This document shows, in pieces, positions 2,104 to 12,968 of a DNA stretch of 16,809 nucleotides. Source of the DNA: Candidatus Eiseniibacteriota bacterium. GTDB lineage: Bacteria > Eisenbacteria > RBG-16-71-46. The DNA is taken from NCBI GenBank assembly GCA_031364845.1, contig JANLWX010000084.1:1-16809 (forward strand), read 5' to 3'. The position numbers and the translations under genes are program-made. The first letter of the stretch is position 1. Every line of letters starts with the position of its first letter. The notes beneath the pieces were generated by a model, which ran no database searches, was not told the DNA's origin, and worked only from the letters and a program-made list of their open reading frames with translations.

Positions 2104-2725
2104 GGAGTGCCGGACCGAGTGGCGCACCCGCTACGGGCTCAACGCCTCGCTGCTGTTCGCGCTCACGACGCTCACCACGGTGAGCTTCGCGGCGGGACGG
2201 CTCGGCGACCGCGTCGATCTGATGAGCGCGTTCCTGTGGATCGTGCTGCTGTTCGCTTCGATGGCCTCGCTCGCCCACGCGTTCGTGCGCGAAGTGGACG
2301 GGCACACGCTCACGTTCCTCCGGATGGTCGCCTCACCCGCCGCGATCGCGGTCGGCAAGCTGCTGTTCAATCTCGTGTTCCTGCTGGTGCTCGAAGCCGT
2401 CACGGTACCGCTGTTCTTCATCCTGATGGATGCGCCGCCGCCGCAATGGGGCCGGTTCCTCGCCTTGCTCGGCCTGGGCAGCCTGGCGCTCGCTTCGACG
2501 AGCACGCTGGTGGGCGCGATCATCGCCCAGACCCGCAGCCGCGGCGCGCTGTTCGCGGCCGTGTCGCTGCCGCTCTTGTTGCCGGTGATGGCGGCGGCCG
2601 TGAGCGGAACGCGCAACCAGTGGCAGAACCTGTCGGTCCGTTCGGAGCTCGGACTGCTCTTAGGCTTCACCGCCGCGGTGCTCGGTGTGAGTGTGTTGTT
2701 GTACGATCACCTGTGGAACGACTGA
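2051..2725 (+). CDS. ccmB: Heme exporter membrane protein CcmB
   Basis: Part of track ORF 1730..2725. TTG at 2051 with GGGAG SD at 2039-2043. N-terminal AILRKECRTEWR, FVREVDGHTL, GKLLFN and LPLLLP motifs; about 6 hydrophobic segments. Start position inferred. Confidence 0.88.
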   Translation: MPTGESNFGAAVWAILRKECRTEWRTRYGLNASLLFALTTLTTVSFAAGRLGDRVDLMSAFLWIVLLFASMASLAHAFVREVDGHTLTFLRMVASPAAIAVGKLLFNLVFLLVLEAVTVPLFFILMDAPPPQWGRFLALLGLGSLALASTSTLVGAIIAQTRSRGALFAAVSLPLLLPVMAAAVSGTRNQWQNLSVRSELGLLLGFTAAVLGVSVLLYDHLWND

Positions 2726-2753
2726 CGATGGGCCTTCGGGAGGGATTGCGCGG

Positions 2754-3410
2754 ATGATCCTGCGCGTGGTGCTGCTGTTGTGGATCGCGGGTTCACTGGT
2801 GGCGGGATTTCTGTGGGCGCCGCTGGTTCCGGGCCTCGGGCCCACGACCCGCGTGCTCTATTTCCACATTCCGTCGGCGTGGATTACCGTGGTGGCGCTC
2901 GCGTGGTCCATGGTGCACAGCATCCTCTATCTCAAGCGCAAACGGCTCGAGCACGACGATCATGCGGCGTCCGCGGCCGAGCTCGGCCTGCTGTTCTGCA
3001 TCGTCGCCACCGTGAGCGGCTCGATGTGGGCGAAGGCCGTGTGGCACTCCTACTGGAACTGGGATCCGCGCGAGACTTCGATCTTCTTCCTGCTGCTGAT
3101 CTACGGCGCCTACCTCGCGCTGCGCAGCTCGATCGAGAACGACGAACGCCGCGCGCGGTTGTCGGCGGTGTACTCGGCGATCGCGTTCGTGACCGTACCG
3201 TTTCTGCTGTTCATCGTGCCGCGGCTCTATTTTTCACTCCACCCGGACACGATCATCAACACACGCGGTAAGGTCGACATGGACCCTCGCATCCGCACCG
3301 CCTTCTTCGCGATGCTGATCGGTTTCACCGGGTTGTTCTTCTGGATCCTCAACCTGAAAGTCCGGCTGTTGCGCCTCGAGCGCAGCCGGGCGGAACAGGC
3401 CGCCGTTTGA
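2754..3410 (+). CDS. ccmC: Heme chaperone-loading membrane protein CcmC
   Basis: ATG 2754 after GGGAGGGA. WWD motif WAKAVWHSYWNWDPRET with the two flanking conserved His (YFHIPSAW, SLHP). Confidence 0.93.
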   Translation: MILRVVLLLWIAGSLVAGFLWAPLVPGLGPTTRVLYFHIPSAWITVVALAWSMVHSILYLKRKRLEHDDHAASAAELGLLFCIVATVSGSMWAKAVWHSYWNWDPRETSIFFLLLIYGAYLALRSSIENDERRARLSAVYSAIAFVTVPFLLFIVPRLYFSLHPDTIINTRGKVDMDPRIRTAFFAMLIGFTGLFFWILNLKVRLLRLERSRAEQAAV

Positions 3411-3411
3411 A

Positions 3412-3471
3412 CCGGTCGCCCGGCCGAAGTCTTCCGGGCGGCTCAGCACGACCGGGACGCGCGATGCGCCC
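3412..3471 (+). other. GC-rich stem-loops in the ccmC-ccmD spacer
   Basis: GTCGCCCGG (3415-3423) pairs with CCGGGCGGC (3434-3442). An alternative outer pairing is CCGGTCG (3412-3418) with CGACCGG (3449-3455). No U-tract follows. Confidence 0.4.
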
Positions 3472-3488
3472 GTAGCAAGGAGATTCGA

Positions 3489-3596
3489 CTGGACGCGAAC
3501 GGCGTGGTGCTCGGTGTGGCTCTGCTGGCATGGGGACTGTTGTTCTTCTACCTGGTGCGGCTCGAACGGCGCATCAAGGATCTGGAGAAGCGATGA
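3489..3596 (+). CDS. ccmD: CcmD family small membrane protein (35 aa), not in the ORF track
   Basis: (M)DANGVVLGVALLAWGLLFFYLVRLERRIKDLEKR*: one TM helix plus a charged amphipathic tail. It lies between ccmC and ccmE and its stop overlaps the ccmE ATG (ATGA). AAGGAG SD (3477-3482) is 6 nt before CTG 3489; the alternative start is GTG 3504. Confidence 0.85.
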   Translation: MDANGVVLGVALLAWGLLFFYLVRLERRIKDLEKR

Positions 3597-3979
3597 ACGT
3601 GAAGATCGTGCTCGCGGTCGTGCTGCTCGCCGTCGCGGCGGGCTTCGGAGTCACCAGCTTTCGCAAGACGATGACGCCCTATATCTCGTTCGCCGAGGCG
3701 CGCAACGCTTCGGGGATGGTGCAGGTCAACGGCGTGCTGGCGAACAAGAACTATGTCCTGAAGCAGGACGAGCAGTACCTCAAGTTCGATCTCAAAGATT
3801 CGAAGGGTGAGGTCATGAACGTCGAGTACCGCGGCGTGATTCCCGGCAACTTCGATCAGGCGATCTCGATCGTGGCGATCGGGCGCTATCAGAAGGGCAC
3901 GTTCGCGGCCGACCAGTTGCTGGTGAAGTGCCCATCCAAATACCAGGCCGAAGCGGAGCAGGGAAAGTCGGCGACATGA
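3593..3979 (+). CDS. ccmE: Heme chaperone CcmE, CxxxY variant
   Basis: ATG 3593 (MNVKIVLAVVLL..., N-terminal anchor), VEYRGVIPGNF, and FAADQLLVKCPSKY with Cys in place of the canonical His of HxxxY. Confidence 0.92.
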   Translation: MNVKIVLAVVLLAVAAGFGVTSFRKTMTPYISFAEARNASGMVQVNGVLANKNYVLKQDEQYLKFDLKDSKGEVMNVEYRGVIPGNFDQAISIVAIGRYQKGTFAADQLLVKCPSKYQAEAEQGKSAT

Positions 3980-6192
3980 ACCTCGGTCAGTTTCTGTGCT
4001 GGATCGCATTCTTCGCCTCGCTGATCTCCGGCCTGTCGTGGCTCGCGGCGACCGGAGGACGTGAAGCCGCACTGCGTCCGGCGCGCATCGCGTTTCGCAT
4101 CCAGTGGCTGGCGCTGTTCGCCGCCGCGGGTACGCTGTGGTGGATCCTGTTCAGCCACGATTTCCACTACCAGTACGTCGCGTCCTACTCCTCGAAGGCG
4201 ATGCCCGCGCGCTACGTCTATGCCGCGTTCTGGGGCGGGCAGGAGGGCACGTTCCTCCTGTGGGCGCTGCTCACGACCACGCTCGGGCTGATCCTGATGC
4301 GGCTGCGCCACTCGCTCACCACGCCGGCGATGTTCTTCCTCAACCTGCCGCTGGTGCTGCTCGGATTCGTGACCGTGATGCGCGGACCGTTCCTCGAGTT
4401 CGCGAACGGTCGGATTCCGGTCGACGGCAATGGCTTGAACCCCTTGCTGCAGGATCCGTGGATGACGATCCATCCGCCGATCCTGTTCCTCGGCTTCTCG
4501 TCGCTCGCGGTGCCGTTCGCGATCGCGATGGCCGCACTCGTGCGCCGCGAATGGGACGGCTGGATCAAGCCCGCGCTGCCGTGGGTCGTGTTCTCGACCG
4601 GCATCCTCGCGACCGGATTCATCATGGGCGGCGTGTGGGCGTACAAGGTGCTCGGGTGGGGCGGCTACTGGGGATGGGATCCGGTCGAGAACGGCTCGCT
4701 GATCCCGTGGCTCTCGAACACGGCATTGCTCCACGGGCTGCTGGTGCAACGCATCTCGGGCAGTCTGCGGCGCACGAACTTCTTCCTCGCGATCACGTCC
4801 TACGTGCTGGTGCTCTATGCGTCGTTCCTCACCCGCAGCGGCGTGCTCGCGGATTTCTCGGTGCACTCGTTCGTCAATCTCGGACTCAACGGATTCCTGC
4901 TGTCGTTCCTGTTCCTGATCATCGGCGTGGGCTACGGCGGGCTCGTGTGGCGGATGCGCGAGATCCCCACACCCGCGAAGCCGCTCGGCAACTTCTCGCG
5001 CGAGTCGATGATGTGGCTCGGCCAGCTGGTGCTGATGCTGATGTGCGTGCTGACCGCGGTCGGTATGAGCGCGCCGCTCATCACGCGCCTGTTCGGCCCG
5101 CCGTCCAACGTCCAGACCTCGTACTACAACATCGTGAACGCACCGCTCGCGGTGGCTCTGGCGCTGCTGGTCGGCATCGCGCCGCTGATGCGGTGGCGCG
5201 AGCAGGATGCGATGGCGCTGGCGCGCGCGGCACTTCCGGCGGTGGTGGTGGCGAGCGCCCTGGCGCTGGTCGCGGTGTTCCTCGGCGTGCGCCAGCCGAT
5301 GCCGGCCGCGGTGATGTTCGCGGCCGCCTTCGCACTCGCGGCGAACGCGATCGTCACGATTCGCGGCTTCCGCGCCGGCTGGAAGCACGGCGTGGCGTTC
5401 CTCGGGCACTTCGGGTTCGCGATGCTCTTGATCGGGGTGGTCGCGTCCTCGGGCTACGGCACCGCGGTCCAGGTGCAGCTGCCGCAGGGCCAGGAGCGCA
5501 CCGCGCTCGGATACCGGCTCACCTTCGAAGGCATGAAGAAGGATGGTGAGGGCAAGGATCACGTGATCGTCGCGGTGCTGGCGCCCGAGCGGAACTTCGA
5601 AGCCCTGCCCGCGATGTACTGGAGCGAGTTCAATCAGGGTTACATGAAGAAGCCGCACATCGAGCGGTTTCTGACCCACGACATCTACATCTCGCCGCTC
5701 GACATGGTCGGCAACGATCCGTCCGAGAATGCGCTGTGGCTCGGCAAGGGCGAGTCGCAGACGATCGGCAAGGTGAAGTACACGTTCGTCGCGTTCGACG
5801 TGCAGGGCATGGGTTCGGCGAACATGCGCATCGCCGCCCAGTTGCGCGCCGAGATCGGCGGGCGCACGGTGACCGTCCGGCCGTTGATCGAAGTGAACGG
5901 TGCGGCGCAGAAGCACGTGCCCGACTATCTGCCGGGCGGGGGATCGGTGACGATCGTGTCGGTCGATCCCGAAAAGGGCCGCGTGGCGCTCGAAGTGCCG
6001 GGCATGGTGAAGCCCGAGAAGACAGGCGAGATCCTGGCACTCGAGGTCAGCACCAAGCCGCTCATCAACCTGGTGTGGCTGGGGGCGGTCGTGATGCTCG
6101 CGAGTGCGTTCATGAGCATGGCGCGCCGCATCATCGACCTGCGGCGCTCGGTGGCGGTGCCGGTGGCGCGTGAGGGCGAAGCGGCGGTCTGA
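3976..6192 (+). CDS. ccmF: Cytochrome c synthetase (heme lyase) CcmF
   Basis: ATG 3976 overlaps the ccmE stop (ATGA). Motifs FWGGQEGTFLLW, GLNPLLQDPWMTIHPP, WWD WAYKVLGWGGYWGWDPVEN, ALLHG, TRSG..SVHSF, GHFG and KPLINLVWLG. Confidence 0.95.
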   Translation: MNLGQFLCWIAFFASLISGLSWLAATGGREAALRPARIAFRIQWLALFAAAGTLWWILFSHDFHYQYVASYSSKAMPARYVYAAFWGGQEGTFLLWALLTTTLGLILMRLRHSLTTPAMFFLNLPLVLLGFVTVMRGPFLEFANGRIPVDGNGLNPLLQDPWMTIHPPILFLGFSSLAVPFAIAMAALVRREWDGWIKPALPWVVFSTGILATGFIMGGVWAYKVLGWGGYWGWDPVENGSLIPWLSNTALLHGLLVQRISGSLRRTNFFLAITSYVLVLYASFLTRSGVLADFSVHSFVNLGLNGFLLSFLFLIIGVGYGGLVWRMREIPTPAKPLGNFSRESMMWLGQLVLMLMCVLTAVGMSAPLITRLFGPPSNVQTSYYNIVNAPLAVALALLVGIAPLMRWREQDAMALARAALPAVVVASALALVAVFLGVRQPMPAAVMFAAAFALAANAIVTIRGFRAGWKHGVAFLGHFGFAMLLIGVVASSGYGTAVQVQLPQGQERTALGYRLTFEGMKKDGEGKDHVIVAVLAPERNFEALPAMYWSEFNQGYMKKPHIERFLTHDIYISPLDMVGNDPSENALWLGKGESQTIGKVKYTFVAFDVQGMGSANMRIAAQLRAEIGGRTVTVRPLIEVNGAAQKHVPDYLPGGGSVTIVSVDPEKGRVALEVPGMVKPEKTGEILALEVSTKPLINLVWLGAVVMLASAFMSMARRIIDLRRSVAVPVAREGEAAV

Positions 6193-6310: not shown

Positions 6311-6568
6311 ATGTTCGAGACCGTGAACGACCCCGTGGATGTCCTGACCGCCTTCACCGATGGAAAGCTCGAACCGCTGCGATTCCGCTGGCGGGGAAAT
6401 GTCGTACGCATCCGCAAAGTCACCGGCCGCTGGTCGCGCCGCGAAGGCCAGGCGGAACTGCGATTCTTCTCGGTGGAGGGGCCGGCGACCGACACTTATG
6501 AGTTGTGCTACGACCCGCGCGGGCCGCGCTGGGTGATGAGCCGGGCCTGGACTGCTGGTGCCGGGTGA
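6311..6568 (+). CDS. Small DUF6504-like / stand-alone ImuB-C-like protein (85 aa)
   Basis: PLRFRWRG..I..V.GRW, RFFSVE, YELCYD...RWVM pattern recalled from DUF6504 and the ImuB C-terminal domain. Lies directly upstream of a Y-family polymerase. Confidence 0.75.
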   Translation: MFETVNDPVDVLTAFTDGKLEPLRFRWRGNVVRIRKVTGRWSRREGQAELRFFSVEGPATDTYELCYDPRGPRWVMSRAWTAGAG

Positions 6569-6595
6569 CCGGCTGCCGGCCGGGGTGGGAGACAC

Positions 6596-7813
6596 ATGAT
6601 TCTGCTCGTCGACATGGATTCGTTCTTCGCCTCGGTGGAGCAGGCGCACCACCCGCACCTGCGCGGCCGGCCGGTGATCGTGTGCGGCGATCCGAGCCGG
6701 CGCGGCGTGGTGACCGCGGCGTCGTACGAGGCGCGTCCGACCGGCGTGCGGGCCGGCATGCCGCTGCAGGAGGCACGCCGGCTGTGCCCCGAGGCGGAGT
6801 ACGTCGAAGGCAATCCCGACAAATATGTCGCGGTGTCGGTGCAGCTCTTGAACCTCTATCTGGAGTACACGCCGGATGTCGAGCCGTTCAGCGTGGATGA
6901 AGCCTTCGTGGGCCTCGGAACCAAGGCCCGCACGCTCGATCGGGCGACGGAGATCGCTGCCGAGATTCAGCGCCGGATCCACGAACGGTTCGCACTCGGT
7001 GCCTCGATCGGCATCGGGCCGAACAAGCTGATCGCCAAGATGGCCTCGGGCGTGAACAAGCCGCGCGGGCTCACCGCGTTCGATGCCGGGAGCTTCTGCG
7101 ATCACTTCTGGCCCAGGGACATACAACAGTTGTGGGGCGTGGGACCTCAGCTCGCCGAGCGCATGCGGTCGCTCGGGATTTCGACCGTCGGTGAGCTGGC
7201 CCGCGCCCCGATTCACATCCTGAAAGGCGCCTTCGGCATGATCGGCCCGCAGCTGCGCGAAGCGGCCCACGGTGCCGACGACACGCCGCTGATTCCCTAT
7301 CACGAAGGCGTCGATGCGAAGTCGATGGGCCACGAAGTCACACTGCCCGCCGACAGCGCCGACCGCGAAGCGCTGATCGGCATGTTGCTGCGCCTGTCGG
7401 ATCAGGTCGCGCGCCGCATGCGCAGCGAGGGCTACGTGGGCCGCACGGTGGCGCTCAAGCTGCGCGACCATCGCTTCCGCACACACATCCGCCAGCGCGC
7501 GCTCGCGAGCCACACCGACGATCACATGAGCGTGTTCACGGTGGTGGAGGAGCTGTTCGGGAAACTGTGGAACGGCGGTCCGGTGCGATTGCTCGGGGTG
7601 AATGTGTCGAGCCTCGAATCGGCCGAGAGGGCCGGTCAGACCGAGCTATTCGACACCAACCGCCGCGCGCGCGAACTGCGCGAGGCGCTCGATCGCGTGC
7701 GCGACAAGCTCGGCGAAGCGAGCGTGGTCCCGGCGGGCACGCTCACCCATCGCGGCAAGCTCGGCCACGTTCCGTTCGGCGCGGTCGGGCCGGCGCGATC
7801 GCCGAAGTCGTAA
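6596..7813 (+). CDS. dinB: Y-family DNA polymerase (DNA polymerase IV/DinB-like)
   Basis: LVDMDSFFASVEQ, ASYEAR, SVDEAF (catalytic acidic residues intact), NKLIAKMAS..NKPRG, HhH LWGVG, little finger KSMGHEVT...VRLLGV, clamp motif QTELF. GGGAG SD upstream. Confidence 0.95.
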   Translation: MILLVDMDSFFASVEQAHHPHLRGRPVIVCGDPSRRGVVTAASYEARPTGVRAGMPLQEARRLCPEAEYVEGNPDKYVAVSVQLLNLYLEYTPDVEPFSVDEAFVGLGTKARTLDRATEIAAEIQRRIHERFALGASIGIGPNKLIAKMASGVNKPRGLTAFDAGSFCDHFWPRDIQQLWGVGPQLAERMRSLGISTVGELARAPIHILKGAFGMIGPQLREAAHGADDTPLIPYHEGVDAKSMGHEVTLPADSADREALIGMLLRLSDQVARRMRSEGYVGRTVALKLRDHRFRTHIRQRALASHTDDHMSVFTVVEELFGKLWNGGPVRLLGVNVSSLESAERAGQTELFDTNRRARELREALDRVRDKLGEASVVPAGTLTHRGKLGHVPFGAVGPARSPKS

Positions 7814-7819
7814 CCTTCG

Positions 7820-8617
7820 ATGGAGACACTGCTCGACCGCGTGCGGCTCGGAACCTCGGGCTATTCGTTTCCCGACTGGGTCGGACCGTTCTATCCGCCC
7901 GGCACCCGGTCCGGCGATTTCCTTGCGTACTACGCCCAACACTTCGACTGCGTCGAGGTGAACTCGACCTACTACCGCATCCCGAATCCGCTGGTGCTCG
8001 AGAAGATGCAGCAGAAGACGCCGGCCGGCTTCAAGTTCGTGGTCAAGCTCAACCAGGCGATGACGCACGAGTCGTCACGCGATCCGCAGCTCTATCGCGA
8101 CTTTTTGGCGCTGCTCGATCCGCTCAAAGACGCGGGCAAGTACGACGGCCTGCTCGCCCAGTTCCCGTGGGGCTTCCGCGGCAACCGGGAGAACGCCCAG
8201 CATCTGCTCGCGATGCGCGAGCTCTTGAACGACGAACCGCTGCACGTTGAGTTCCGCCACGATTCGTGGCTCACGCCCGAAGTCGCACCGTGGCTCACGA
8301 AGCACAAGCTCGGCTACTGCGTGGTGGATGAGCCGCAGTTGGAGCACCTGATGCCGCCCACACTGCTCGTGACCGGCGAGGACGCCTACGTGCGACTCCA
8401 CGGCAGGAACGCCGCCAACTGGTGGGGGAGCAAAGGCGGCGACCGTTACGACTACGACTACAGCCCCGATGAGTTGAAAGACTGGCTGAAGAAGATCCAG
8501 GAACTGGCGCAGACCGCCCGGCGCACCTACCTGTTCTTCAACAACTGCCACGCCGGCCAGGCCGCGCGCAACGCGAAGCTCATGCAGGAGATGCTGCGGC
8601 AACAGACGATCGCGTGA
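7820..8617 (+). CDS. DUF72 (YecE-like) domain protein
   Basis: RLGTSGYSFPDWVGPFYP, YAQHFDCVEVNSTYYRIP, QFP, VEFRHDSW, YVRLHGRN, RYDYDYS, YLFFNN. Starts 6 nt after dinB. Confidence 0.93.
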   Translation: METLLDRVRLGTSGYSFPDWVGPFYPPGTRSGDFLAYYAQHFDCVEVNSTYYRIPNPLVLEKMQQKTPAGFKFVVKLNQAMTHESSRDPQLYRDFLALLDPLKDAGKYDGLLAQFPWGFRGNRENAQHLLAMRELLNDEPLHVEFRHDSWLTPEVAPWLTKHKLGYCVVDEPQLEHLMPPTLLVTGEDAYVRLHGRNAANWWGSKGGDRYDYDYSPDELKDWLKKIQELAQTARRTYLFFNNCHAGQAARNAKLMQEMLRQQTIA

Positions 8618-8835
8618 GGGCCGGTGATTCCCGCACAGTCTGTAATAGTCCTTGACCAAAACCGGACAAGGGAGTTTCCTTTATACACCTCATCACGGGC
8701 AGACGGATCCTCCCATGAATTCCGTTTGTCATCTTGGCCGCGTGCGCTTCTGAAAGGGATCGACCGTCCTTGCTCCGGCAACGCGCGCCTTCACGCATGT
8801 AACTCATTCGCAGATCAAAAGGCAGGAGGCAACTG

Positions 8836-8934
8836 ATGAGGCCGCCGTCGAGCCCAACACGTCCGAGTAGCTCGAATTCCTCTCCTCTCTGCGCCTTGAT
8901 ACTGGCTGCGCTCGCCTCATGGTCATCGATGTGA
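8836..8934 (+). other. Probable true 5' end (signal peptide) of the large oxidase gene, one base out of frame
   Basis: AGGAGG (8824-8829) then ATG 8836 gives MRPPSSPTRPSSSNSSPLCALILAALASWSSM*. One extra C at 8915-8916 would join it to the 8919 ORF. ATG 8919 has no SD. Confidence 0.65.
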
Positions 8935-11900
8935 CGACCTGGATCGAGCCGAGCAGCGCATCGGACTACAACGTCAAGGGTCGTTGGGCGTGGGTGGACA
9001 CGACGCAGTGGGACAGCTTGCTCAGCGATCCCGGGCCTAACGAAGTACGCCTCAAGAGCGGGGGCGGCACGCACATGGCCTTGCTCCGCGACAGCACCGA
9101 CAAGTCGTGGGTGCTGCACTGGCACACGGGCGCCACCGCACGGTTGTGGCGTGCAGACTCGATGGCGACCTCGACTTTCTCCACACACGTGCCGACCGAC
9201 AGTGCCTTCAATTCGTTCTGCGCCGGGCATGCGGTAATGGCGGACGGTCGCCTGATGGTGGTGGGCGGGACCCTGGTCGGCATCACGGGCGAACAGCGAG
9301 TGTCGATCTTCAACGTGAACCGCATCGACGCGACGCATCGCGGCTGGACGTTCGCAGACACGCTCGACTATGGCCGCTGGTATGCGACCGTGACGGCACT
9401 GGGCGACGGCAAGGTGATGGCGATGTCGGGCACCCAATTCATGAAGATGCAGATGTTCGGCGGCCGCGAAACCGATGGCACCGAGAGCTTCATGAACGAT
9501 GCGCGGGTGCTCGATCTCGGCAAGCGGTTGCCGTGGGAAAGCGATCAGACTCCGACCACGCCGCGCCCCGCCGAGCGCCATGGACACAGCGCGAACTGGT
9601 ATGTGTCCGACGGAAGAACGGTGGTGTTCGGTGGACTCGTCGAAGGTGGCACCGTCGATACCGTGACGAACCCCGTCTGGCGTCTGTTTCTGGAGGACAA
9701 CGACTACGGGCAGAAGTGGACATGGAACAACCCGGTCACCGTCGGCGACGCCGATTACTCCACAGAATATTTGGGCCGTCCGCGACCGCGGCATCGGCAC
9801 GCGGCGACCATCGTCGACACCTCCCTATTCATCTTCGGCGGAATCGGCAAAGACGGGAGCAGCAACGATGTGGTGCTGGACGATCTGTGGCGGCTCAATC
9901 TCGTAACGCTCCAATGGAAGAAGTTCATCCTCAGCGGTGCGCCTGGAGCGCGCTATGGACACACGATGGGGGCCGACAGCCTCGCGAAGCCCGACACGAG
10001 CGCGCACCGTCCCGTGCTCCTGGTCTATGGCGGGCGGAGTTCATCGAGCAGCTATGCCGATGGCGACGTTTGGGTGTTGACGGTAAACGGCTCGCAAGGA
10101 GAACTGCCCCTGAGCTGGCGACGGGTGACTCCCGGGGGTTCGACGCCGGGGCAGCGCGAGGGACATGTGGCGGTGATGGATCGGCCGCTGGACCATCGGA
10201 TGATCGTGTTCGGCGGCGATCGTTCGAGCGGTGGTCTGGGAAACGATGTGTGGGAATTAAAGCCGGCGTCGGACTGGACGTGGACCAACATCAGTCCGGG
10301 ATCGGGTTCGACACCCTCGGCGCGCACACGGCATGCGGCGATCTACGATGGCGAGTGGCAACGGCTCTTGGTGTTCGGCGGCGATACGAATACCGGAAGC
10401 GGCGGCGAGGTTGCCGACCTGTGGTCGCTGCCGTTGGATTTGGGTTCTCCCACGTGGCAGCAACAGTGGCATGGCAGCGCGCCCGCGGCGCGACAGGGTC
10501 ATGCGGCGGTGTTCGATGCGCGGGCCTACGAGGCCAAGGTTCCTGAGCGCTACTCGGCGGGCAGCAACACGTGGGAGCAGTTTACGAGTGCTCCCAGGTG
10601 GCAGGTGGACTACCCGTTCATGCACCAGTTGAGGAACGGAAAGCTGTTGTACGGCGGCAACGGACCGGCGAAGCGGGATACGAGTTGGATCTTCGATCCG
10701 GCCGCTCCCGCGTGGACGGACTCGGCCGTGAGTGGTTTGCTCGGCGGATCGTCGATCATGACCGGTGCAACCGCCGACACGGTGATGAAGTTCGGGGCTA
10801 CGGATCATCCGGATGTGGATGCTTTGAATGGCGAGGGGCGCTACGCGCTGGTTGATTCGATGAGCGGTGCGACGACGTGGGCTGAAATTGATGCATTGCC
10901 AGGTGGACTCAAGCGCAGATATCACAACCTGACGATCGTGCCAGATGGGCGTGCTCTCCTAACGGGAGGCATTCGTAGCGACTCGAAAGGGGCGGACGAC
11001 AAGCCCGTCTATTCACTGACGCCCTACTTCTACGGCAGTAAGAAGTGGGGCGGGGCATTGGCGGACGATCTCGCCCGCCGCAGCTATCACTCGACGGCAA
11101 TGTTGTTGCCGGACGCACGCATCCTGTGCGCGAGCGGCATCCCCATCGACGACACGCTCCACGCCACGGTCTACTCGCCTCCCTATCTCTACAGCAACGG
11201 CACCACGCTCGCGACGCGCCCGTTCGTCACCAAAATGCCGAGCTACACCTCCTTCCACTACGGCGAGCCTTTGTGGGTGGGGGTGGATGCGGCCTCGATC
11301 TCGACGATCAGCATCGTGTCGCTGATCCGTCCCGGATCGGTGACGCACGGGTTCGACCAGAATCAGCGCTACATCCGTCCACTGTTCACGAAGGACGTGA
11401 CGAACAAGCGCATGCGCGTGCTGATCCCGCCCAATCCTAATCACGTGCCACCCGGCGACTATCTGCTGTTTGCGGTGCGCAGCGACGGCGTGCCGTGGGT
11501 CGCGAAGTGGGTGAGGGTCGAAGCCGAGACCGACGCGACCGCACCCGCGGCGGTGGAAGATCTGGATGTAATCGTCGACTATCCGTCGACGGTCTATCTA
11601 TCGTGGACTGCACAGGGCGATGACGGTACCGGTCCCCGTACCGCCCGCAGGCACGAGGTGCGCTATTCGACTTCTCCGATCACCGAGGGAAACTGGAGTT
11701 CGGCGAGCCTCGCGCACCTCGGGGGACCGAAGCCCGCGGGTGACGCCGAGTTCGTAGGGGTAGTCGGTCTGGGAGCCTGTTCCTATTACGCAGCGATGAA
11801 GACGTTCGATGAGCAGGACAATGCCTCGGCGCTCAGCAACGTTGTCGAGTTCGAGATGGGAGGATGCGGTGGCGGAGCATCGAGCCGTCGCGCTCACGAG

Positions 11901-12968
11901 CGGACGCTGCGCAGCGAGACTTCGACGGCGATGATGCAGGGTGAGGGTCACGTGGGCGTGGTGCGATTCGGACGATCCGTTGGTACGAGCGTTCAGATCG
12001 TCAACGTGGGTACGAGTCCGCTTGCGATTGACTCGCTCGGGATGGTGGTTGCGACCGAGTCAGGCGACAGCGTGGCGATCACAGTGCAAGGTACACTCGA
12101 ACTCGCCACCAGCGAAGCGGTGGCGTCGATCCGAAGCTCGATCGCGGGAGAAGTCCGGGCACACATTGCGGCAGGCTACGACGCGGCCCCGGGTGAGACC
12201 CTGACCGTAGACGTGGGTGGCCAGGCGACGGCTCTGCGGGTGAAGGCGCTCGCCGTCGAGACGGCGAGCGAAGCATCTGCATCCGGAATCGTGGTCGAGA
12301 CCTGTTCCGGTGACCAGTGGGGTCAGAAGCGCAGGATCTACCCCGGGTCCGAAGCGGGAACCTGGATTGTGGAAGTTGCGGGTGACAGCGCGCGACTGGT
12401 GTTCCATGGCGGCTACACCATCGAAGCGTTCGATGAGCTGACGCCAACGGCGAAGGTGCCGGCCGTGCGTGCGTTGGCGCGAGCGGAGTTCGAGCACTCG
12501 AGCATCGAAACCCTGGACCTGAGTTCGGGAAGCGCGGCTGACCCCATCATCGTGCAGCCGGGCGAACACGTTCGAGTCGGGTTCGACGACGAGGCCCCGC
12601 AGGAAGGCCGTAGCGCGTTCATCGCGCTGAGAACCCGATCACCGAGCACCGCCGAGCAGACCCGCAGTACCGGAACGCAAACGCTACCGGTCCAGTTCGC
12701 GCTCGGACAGAACAAACCCAATCCGTTCGGAGATGGCACCCTCATCCGCTTCGAACTGCCGCGTAGAGCCCGTGTGGATCTGGAAGTGTTCGACGTCCAT
12801 GGGCGGCGCATCAAGCGGCTGGCGCGAGGTGAGTGGGCGGCGGGTTATCACGCCCTCGAGTGGAATGGGCGTGATGCGGAAGGGCGTCGAGTTGGTGCGG
12901 GCGTTTACCTCTACCGGATGACCGCAGGCTCGTTCACGAAGAGCCGGAAACTCGTGGTGCTGCCGTGA
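8919..12968 (+). CDS. Multidomain copper radical oxidase-like protein (galactose/glyoxal oxidase family, AA5): Kelch propeller with nested second Kelch propeller, DUF1929 E-set domain, FN3, unknown region, FlgD-Ig/T9SS-like CTD
   Basis: FCAGH (Cys101), GRWY (Tyr155), RSYHS (Tyr723-His724), SVTHGFDQNQR (His810) and PPGDYLLF. FN3 LSWTAQGDDG...RYSTSPIT. CTD QNKPNPF...WNGRD..G..V.AGVYLYRM...KLVVL. Confidence 0.88.
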   Translation: MVIDVTTWIEPSSASDYNVKGRWAWVDTTQWDSLLSDPGPNEVRLKSGGGTHMALLRDSTDKSWVLHWHTGATARLWRADSMATSTFSTHVPTDSAFNSFCAGHAVMADGRLMVVGGTLVGITGEQRVSIFNVNRIDATHRGWTFADTLDYGRWYATVTALGDGKVMAMSGTQFMKMQMFGGRETDGTESFMNDARVLDLGKRLPWESDQTPTTPRPAERHGHSANWYVSDGRTVVFGGLVEGGTVDTVTNPVWRLFLEDNDYGQKWTWNNPVTVGDADYSTEYLGRPRPRHRHAATIVDTSLFIFGGIGKDGSSNDVVLDDLWRLNLVTLQWKKFILSGAPGARYGHTMGADSLAKPDTSAHRPVLLVYGGRSSSSSYADGDVWVLTVNGSQGELPLSWRRVTPGGSTPGQREGHVAVMDRPLDHRMIVFGGDRSSGGLGNDVWELKPASDWTWTNISPGSGSTPSARTRHAAIYDGEWQRLLVFGGDTNTGSGGEVADLWSLPLDLGSPTWQQQWHGSAPAARQGHAAVFDARAYEAKVPERYSAGSNTWEQFTSAPRWQVDYPFMHQLRNGKLLYGGNGPAKRDTSWIFDPAAPAWTDSAVSGLLGGSSIMTGATADTVMKFGATDHPDVDALNGEGRYALVDSMSGATTWAEIDALPGGLKRRYHNLTIVPDGRALLTGGIRSDSKGADDKPVYSLTPYFYGSKKWGGALADDLARRSYHSTAMLLPDARILCASGIPIDDTLHATVYSPPYLYSNGTTLATRPFVTKMPSYTSFHYGEPLWVGVDAASISTISIVSLIRPGSVTHGFDQNQRYIRPLFTKDVTNKRMRVLIPPNPNHVPPGDYLLFAVRSDGVPWVAKWVRVEAETDATAPAAVEDLDVIVDYPSTVYLSWTAQGDDGTGPRTARRHEVRYSTSPITEGNWSSASLAHLGGPKPAGDAEFVGVVGLGACSYYAAMKTFDEQDNASALSNVVEFEMGGCGGGASSRRAHERTLRSETSTAMMQGEGHVGVVRFGRSVGTSVQIVNVGTSPLAIDSLGMVVATESGDSVAITVQGTLELATSEAVASIRSSIAGEVRAHIAAGYDAAPGETLTVDVGGQATALRVKALAVETASEASASGIVVETCSGDQWGQKRRIYPGSEAGTWIVEVAGDSARLVFHGGYTIEAFDELTPTAKVPAVRALARAEFEHSSIETLDLSSGSAADPIIVQPGEHVRVGFDDEAPQEGRSAFIALRTRSPSTAEQTRSTGTQTLPVQFALGQNKPNPFGDGTLIRFELPRRARVDLEVFDVHGRRIKRLARGEWAAGYHALEWNGRDAEGRRVGAGVYLYRMTAGSFTKSRKLVVLP

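Follow-up and report, generated by a model that had tools for sequence, protein, structure and literature searches.

A predicted copper radical oxidase with a nested Kelch propeller, and 5′ repeats suggestive of phase variation, in Eisenbacteria

We analysed a 16,809-nucleotide stretch of DNA from a Candidatus Eiseniibacteriota bacterium (contig JANLWX010000084.1; the whole stretch is called the window below). One open reading frame (ORF) of 1,349 residues, P0001 (8919..12968), on the forward strand like its parts and the downstream gene P0002, encodes a predicted copper radical oxidase of the AA5 type. We found that a whole six-blade Kelch propeller is inserted in P0001 in the loop after the cofactor tyrosine, a layout that is almost certainly real, and that genes of this layout carry, at some of their 5′ ends, repeat tracts suggestive of phase variation. 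Our joint reading combines the layout, catalytically competent ON alleles, phase variation in the family, the OFF state or missing export signal of this copy, and an insert that acts as a lid or recruits substrate; on whether all of these hold together, we regard the evidence as evenly balanced.

The nested propeller and its family

The oxidase propeller of P0001, predicted to have seven blades, is split into an N-terminal part with Cys101, Trp154 and Tyr155 (8958..9434) and a C-terminal part with Tyr723-His724 (10533..11216; the pair at 11085-11090), followed by a galactose-oxidase E-set domain (PF09118) with His810 (11217..11519). Between the two parts lies an insert of 366 residues (173-538; 9435..10532), comprising a KLHDC-type Kelch ring and two linker strands. 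Pfam models matched the KLHDC2-type Kelch family PF24681 (E 1e-50) and GO-like_E_set at 767-867, above its cut-off, as well as Glyoxal_oxid_N at 97-186, under its cut-off. GlxA of Streptomyces lividans is the best solved relative by sequence (E 3.6e-23); residues 90-118, 142-176 and 545-867 align to it, nothing in between does, and the gap coincides with the insert. A preliminary description of this DNA had proposed a Kelch insert of about 360 residues that splits the oxidase, with ends that complement each other to close a ring, placed at the Trp290 loop of galactose oxidase, and the evidence bears this out. The insert holds six Kelch units with GG, D.W and W motifs, including six [FY]GG motifs at residues 180, 237, 306, 370, 431 and 486 and six R..H blade starts at about 220, 291, 345, 413, 469 and 525. 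Its first unit lacks the first strand and its last piece provides one, and it starts 18 residues after the cofactor tyrosine (numbering from PMC11611005).

The five cofactor and ligand residues of AA5 enzymes were all confirmed by position and align with GlxA: Cys101, of the predicted Cys-Tyr cofactor (9219..9221; GlxA C121), Tyr155 (9381), Tyr723 and His724 (11085 and 11088) and His810 (11346). The preliminary description had mapped these residues onto Cys228, Tyr272, Tyr495, His496 and His581 of Fusarium galactose oxidase. That correspondence stands, and the type of site can be refined. Trp154-Tyr155 (9378..9383), the predicted stacking tryptophan and cofactor tyrosine, corresponds to W288-Y289 of GlxA, and the predicted active site is GlxA/AA5_1-like: the tryptophan position is alike in an AA5_1 aldehyde oxidase and GlxA, and unlike Trp290 of galactose oxidase (PMC13094651). 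The AA5_2-type stacking aromatic is absent from the Trp290 position (about residue 173), which is the start of the insert and mostly Arg, Gln, Lys or Glu. Since the stacking tryptophan precedes the tyrosine as in GlxA, loss of the Trp290 loop would cost nothing, and a tryptophan was free to be lost there.

A tryptophan stands directly before the cofactor tyrosine in 91 of 112 relatives, and all five residues (C, Y, Y, H, H) are kept in 95 of 111 once near-copies are removed. The whole-core fold match described below suggests that the five residues converge on one site. Copper binding, a Cys-Tyr crosslink and oxidation of alcohols or aldehydes with release of H2O2 are predicted on this basis, and ON alleles are very probably competent catalysts. 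In seven inserted relatives (L054, L243, L247, L223, L260, L251 and P0057) the Cys-Tyr pair is gone (E/E, E/A, E/S or A/N in its place) and Tyr-His-His is kept, and in others the axial tyrosine is replaced by D, H, N, R or F. Such proteins may have non-radical metal sites or may be pseudo-enzymes.

An AlphaFold2 model of residues 14-869, built with 44 aligned sequences, reached a mean predicted local distance score (pLDDT) of 86.7 and a predicted template-modelling score (pTM) of 0.88. Its core superposes on GlxA (Z 44.6, root-mean-square deviation (rmsd) 2.1, 444 residues aligned) and on galactose oxidase (Z 42.9), so that the predicted structure matches a seven-blade propeller plus E-set over 439-444 residues at rmsd 2.1. 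Model residues 163-521 (176-534 of the protein) match the Keap1 ring over all 284 of 284 residues (Z 36.2, rmsd 1.9). In the model, therefore, the insert folds as a separate closed six-blade ring beside the oxidase core, as had been anticipated. No single solved chain among 48,161 representatives spans both propellers, the largest alignment covering 445 of 856 residues. The pTM of 0.88, reached although the larger domain makes up only about 57% of the chain, suggests that the two rings hold a fixed relative position. When insert and core halves were docked as individual chains, the score was 0.00 and the mark 0.32, which is evidence for neither side.

The c-d loop of insert blade 2 (residues 254-269; 9678..9725) is lengthened and partly conserved. 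Its median length is 17 residues, whereas 271 of 305 Kelch-only blades have 10, and it carries an arginine in 74, an aspartate in 61 and an aromatic residue in 93 of 112 relatives. This loop lies on the linker face and is a candidate for contact with the catalytic face of the oxidase. In the usual Kelch topology, the insert would be joined through the face opposite the customary ligand face, so that the binding face points away from the linkers. The aligned insert of one relative, P0010, falls short by roughly a blade (spacing 305), which could be a five-blade variant or an assembly collapse.

The same insertion point recurs across a large family. A first protein search found the full layout in 43 of the 119 other matches listed, those with a named source being Candidatus Eisenbacteria. 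After extra loci were added and near-copies removed, the search for homologues called for by the preliminary description yielded 112 distinct relatives with the insert, from Eisenbacteria-like genomes and with identical junctions. The spacing between the oxidase halves is bimodal, with 305-467 residues in 77 entries, all with a Kelch match, and 0-35 in 178 entries; this count excludes ten partial entries, one fragment at 138 and nine with negative spacing. Inserted genes occur in 40 related genomes and in three genomes of other families of the same class, and the E-set family, uninserted forms included, has matches in 62 of 206 genomes of the phylum, with up to 11 per genome. Among the best 80 loci of a named-genome scan, five were inserted: one labelled Eisenbacteria, one labelled Methylomirabilota and three unclassified (two measured for spacing, one partial). 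The Methylomirabilota-labelled gene, which is possibly misbinned, matches a metagenome contig in both layout and 5′ region (L142 and L028). The host genome (G000) has a second inserted gene, in frame, on contig C226, and two uninserted oxidase-like genes with sorting tails in tandem on C61 (G000:C61:24733-28800), the second of which has an altered cofactor region. No match was found in a same-genus genome (G001, 93% complete) or in phage records. A strict single-protein search of the 206 phylum genomes matched eight and was too insensitive for mapping the range; in metagenome scans, too, a single-protein query found no relative, whereas an alignment query did. Rare members beyond the Eisenbacteria-like lineage may have been missed.

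In a tree of the oxidase halves only, all 68 inserted forms fall on one side of a branch among 231 rows (FastTree 0.891), and in a 56-row subsample that included eight same-lineage uninserted oxidases, all 22 inserted forms group together on one side of a branch (SH-aLRT 100). A single insertion event is likely rather than proved, because the trees are unrooted and their rows were collected by similarity to the query. The many Kelch-repeat genes of the host genome could invite the idea that assembly had fused a Kelch gene with an oxidase gene into a chimera. This explanation is vanishingly improbable. The left junction is bridged by contigs of two other samples from the same study and the right junction by one, with zero differences, which together with the junctions common to the 112 relatives and the C226 paralogue excludes a chimera.

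Repeat tracts at the 5′ ends of the family

The preliminary description had taken 8919 as the start of the gene, but the true start probably lies elsewhere. Upstream, a Shine-Dalgarno-like AGGAGG (8824..8829), putatively functional, precedes an ATG at 8836 that opens a 32-codon signal-peptide-like frame (8836..8934). This frame is shifted by one base relative to the main ORF and terminates at a stop at 8932-8934. The start motif at this ATG is the same in the relatives P0003 and L002. The P0001 ORF has no in-frame signal peptide; by a hydrophobicity rule, most relatives have one. The frame contains a short remnant of 2.4 CCTCT pentamers (8878..8889) where near relatives have longer pentamer arrays, too short to be called a working switch. 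The frameshift lies within 8878-8931, and L002 and P0003 support differing readings of the hydrophobic stretch. The sequence of 8796-8946 is identical in a second sample (one 151-base contig, depth 2.6), and no sigma-70 promoter or terminator pattern was found in 8600-8960. From its sequence, we consider it probable, with good confidence, that this copy is OFF or is without an export signal.

Because the signal-like frame of P0001 is out of frame, we surveyed the 5′ ends of its relatives, scoring homopolymers of at least 8 within 330 bases upstream of the mature N terminus. Such tracts were present at 23 of 70 inserted genes from related genomes (in 16 of 40 genomes) and at 4 of 11 other loci. 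By contrast, controls showed 0 of 34 for Kelch-only genes, 2 of 180 for sorting-tail genes of the host genome, and 0 of 8 for same-lineage and 2 of 121 for other uninserted oxidases; none of 330 coding-body windows held a homopolymer longer than 7. By position, the 27 tracts comprise 14 within the signal-coding region (two in frame, both C8, and 12 out of frame), one immediately ahead of the ATG, and 12 that come after a TTGAC-like hexamer (nine with TTGAC within 20 bases) and leave the ORF unbroken. Gene-level tests for tract enrichment gave p near 5e-6, a value that is overstated because kin are not independent and the control genomes are only partly matched.

Across the family, the repeats are poly-C/G, CT and pentamers, located in the signal peptide or the promoter spacer. 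The nearest relatives use pentamers: in P0003 (83% identical) and P0010 the signal region contains five-residue repeats encoded by them, whereas the array of L002 is degenerate and out of frame. Twelve genes fetched later included one with a C8 tract and two in which long CT arrays, of 19 and 14 units, put the gene out of frame. In genome G061, five of the 30 C/G tracts of at least 9 are at inserted genes, that is, at five of the eight such genes with a visible 5′ end (one found via its tract), and in G160 two of the four long CT tracts are at inserted genes, the other two being at or before other sorting-tail genes. These data make phase variation in the family by repeat slippage likely. Further long repeats stand at the 5′ ends of other secreted proteins in G160 and G061 (L330-L349), several of which have no Pfam match, and divergent gene pairs share one G tract at L332, L339 and L346; this suggests a wider phase-variable secretome in these two genomes.

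Export, proposed mechanism and alternatives

P0001 ends in a type IX secretion (FlgD-Ig-like) sorting domain (12702..12965; PF13860), which scores narrowly above the TIGR04183 cut-off (27.4 versus 23 bits). A search of the host genome for type IX machinery, which covered SprA and PorV, gave one SprA_N and two PorV matches above cut-off. Export of P0001 by type IX secretion and display at the surface are thus likely. In the host genome, 245 ORFs end in a type IX or FlgD-like sorting domain, and many of them are multi-blade Kelch proteins; a literature search for Eisenbacteria and type IX secretion returned 0 papers.

In the mechanism that we propose, repeat slippage would decide which paralogues are produced. 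The product of an ON allele would leave the cell by type IX secretion, acquire copper and be presented at the surface. The nested ring would cap the copper site and select a large surface substrate, its linker face and long blade-2 loop docking onto the catalytic face much as domain 2 of GlxA shields its site. The oxidase would then act on alcohol or aldehyde groups with release of H2O2, as members of this fold do (PMC11611005), and switching would alter surface chemistry or adhesion. Most repeat loci of this kind code for surface structures that are exposed to pressure from hosts or phages (PMC11868660), which is why we favour a surface target over housekeeping chemistry; the target may be on the cell's own surface or matrix, a glycan being the most likely candidate. 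We lean slightly towards an insert that acts as a lid or recruits substrate. More tentatively, the family may be a repertoire of phase-variable surface radical oxidases in which the nested Kelch ring is a variable specificity module for a macromolecular target, either a surface glycan or a protein. If so, cells would randomly switch the oxidative modification of their surface, a contingency system of redox enzymes in a free-living lineage, and nature would offer a route for aiming copper-radical chemistry at polymers or proteins.

Other explanations are possible to differing degrees. One, which we find doubtful, is that the oxidase produces H2O2 from small, diffusible substrates, either aldehydes or alcohols, and that the Kelch ring is a mere anchor or adhesion module in a tolerant loop. 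The topology that turns the usual Kelch binding face away from the linkers fits this explanation, as does the abundance of secreted Kelch-only proteins in the host genome. Small aldehydes, moreover, are the preferred substrates of GlxA and the AA5_1 enzymes, with which P0001 shares the Trp-Tyr arrangement (PMC13094651, PMC11611005). A mere anchor agrees less well with the fixed packing suggested by the pTM or with the conservation of the family-specific long loop on the linker face. Nor is there an insert-less branch within the inserted clade, though rows were classed by insert, and uninserted secreted oxidases are already present in these genomes. The ring might instead bind a peptide, as KLHDC2 and Keap1 do, and present a side chain or attached sugar of a protein for crosslinking or marking. 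The nearest solved folds of the insert do bind peptides or proteins (Keap1, KLHL12, LZTR1, KLHDC2/3), and the paralogues are many and divergent, with up to 11 PF09118 matches in one genome. Fold likeness proves no function, however, a conserved partner gene was not found, and no AA5 enzyme with a protein substrate was found in the accessible literature, which makes a protein substrate quite improbable.

It is also unlikely, in our view, that the family is simply a decaying set of paralogues in which the repeats are hot spots of mutation or assembly error and the present copy is a pseudogene. Of the 18 coding tracts, 15 are out of frame, internal stops or breaks interrupt several genes, assembly is prone to errors at homopolymers, this copy is without a long tract, and the same-genus genome G001 has no match at all. 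However, the 3 of 18 tracts in frame are not distinguishable from one third (p 0.10), and assembly errors alter tract length but cannot create tracts. Four unit types recur at 5′ ends only, as the 330 coding-body windows indicate, and the 12 tracts just after a TTGAC-like hexamer leave the ORF unbroken. The 1,349-codon ORF of this copy is otherwise intact and keeps all ligands.

Several observations weigh against our interpretation. The position of the insert relative to copper is a deduction from topology. Mean identity is lower in the insert (29%) than in the core parts (34% and 39%), no conserved ligand patch was seen on it, and 16 of 111 relatives lack at least one cofactor or ligand residue. 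Two thirds of the family 5′ ends have no tract. Among the 12 genes fetched later, one satisfies the homopolymer rule and three carry a tract if CT arrays are counted. The partial matching of control genomes and the non-independence of kin count here too, as do the internal stops or breaks in several relatives. No length variation was seen within one population, where only contigs were examined for this strain. No conserved neighbour hints at a substrate. Given only 2.4 pentamer units, the frameshift of this copy may be a plain lesion.

Beyond the E-set domain, P0001 contains a fibronectin type III domain (11529..11873; fold match Z 11.6, rmsd 2.3, 96 residues aligned) and an all-beta region of about 230 residues that is common to many family members (11952..12638). 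The latter gave no clear known match in fold and Atlas searches, in which it was included only within larger stretches (best Atlas value 0.77), and it also matches other long ORFs of related genomes. The downstream gene P0002 (12965..15268), whose start overlaps the oxidase stop, encodes a signal peptide, BNR repeats and the same sorting domain (Pfam, TIGR04183), and was not found as a conserved partner. Third-position G+C is mostly 0.72-0.79 in the oxidase gene and P0002 (0.85 in the N-terminal part), compared with 0.85-0.92 in flanking genes. No neighbour family is conserved, the largest cluster (30 ORFs) apparently consisting of shadow frames over the gene itself, and a treS synteny check gave no match at E 1e-100. 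Its absence from the same-genus genome and the lack of a conserved neighbourhood mark P0001 as an accessory gene. Elsewhere in the window are cytochrome c maturation genes (ccmC, ccmE and ccmF-like; 2712-6192) and, directly upstream of the oxidase, a DUF6504-DinB/IMS-DUF72 cluster (6311-8617).

Relation to known systems

Literature searches, for which subscription papers and supplements were outside the scope, did not find the inserted-Kelch layout, and Eisenbacteria with galactose oxidase returned 0 papers. No oxidase with an inserted Kelch ring appears in the accessible parts of PMC11611005, PMC11267884, PMC13094651, PMC11868660 or either bioRxiv preprint (10.1101/2023.11.20.567928 and 10.1101/2020.09.16.300947), in keeping with the earlier claim that no characterised copper radical oxidase has this architecture. 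Copper radical oxidases are sought-after biocatalysts. Their described accessory modules are N-terminal in the accessible texts, the small domain of GlxA excepted, and a whole propeller in the active-site loop would be a new architecture. The more than 100 natural variants offer a series in which to test what governs access to a radical site.

GlxA (PDB 4UNM; NF052501) is the best match in both sequence and fold, with the same five residues and tryptophan. Its domain 2 (residues 143-260; bioRxiv 10.1101/2023.11.20.567928), which shields the copper site (PMC11611005), is an insert of about 118 residues, whereas P0001 has a 366-residue Kelch ring after the tyrosine. The preliminary description had held that the GlxA insert is not Kelch and lies elsewhere. 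It is indeed a different insert in another blade, but its position is not unrelated: in the alignment it directly follows the GG strand in the Cys blade, which places it in the equivalent loop one blade earlier, and GlxA is therefore a closer precedent than had been thought. P0001 has no domain 2 of this kind, the stretch between the Cys and Tyr blades being 24 residues compared with about 138 in GlxA. GlxA has a membrane anchor; P0001 has a type IX tail instead, and no cellulose-synthase neighbour was seen. Judged by its residues, P0001 is predicted to work like GlxA, yet it falls outside GlxA membership because it scores 126 bits against the NF052501 equivalog cut-off of 800 and carries a different insert.

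Fusarium galactose oxidase and other AA5_2 structures (PDB 1GOF, 5C92 and 9G43; Z 42-44) have the same seven-blade propeller, E-set and ligand set, but in P0001 the insert occupies the Trp290 position, and the accessory modules of AA5_2 enzymes (CBM32, PAN and WSC) are N-terminal (PMC11611005). The AA5_1 glyoxal and aldehyde oxidases (PDB 9N3U; Z 37.6) share with P0001 a tryptophan adjacent to the cofactor tyrosine (W509-Y510 in PMC13094651); they are fungal, with N-terminal WSC domains and without an inserted propeller. As a whole ring, the insert resembles KLHDC/Keap1-type Kelch domains (PF24681; Z 35-36). Unlike them, it is nested within another propeller and has a long blade-2 loop.

Phase variation by simple sequence repeats is known from bacteria such as Neisseria, with its opa genes and promoter-spacer tracts. 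Another example is the poly-C tract of Gardnerella nanH3 (bioRxiv 10.1101/2020.09.16.300947). The family described here resembles such systems in its frame-shifting poly-C/G, CT and pentamer tracts near the 5′ end of the coding sequence and in the tracts that follow a -35-like hexamer. Unlike these cases, it is a redox enzyme family from an uncultured soil and sediment lineage, in which switching is predicted. The known cases may reflect a bias of databases toward pathogens and commensals (PMC11868660). The repeats of the present family suggest that an uncultured lineage from the environment uses phase variation, and that the enzyme is under fluctuating selection, probably at the cell surface.

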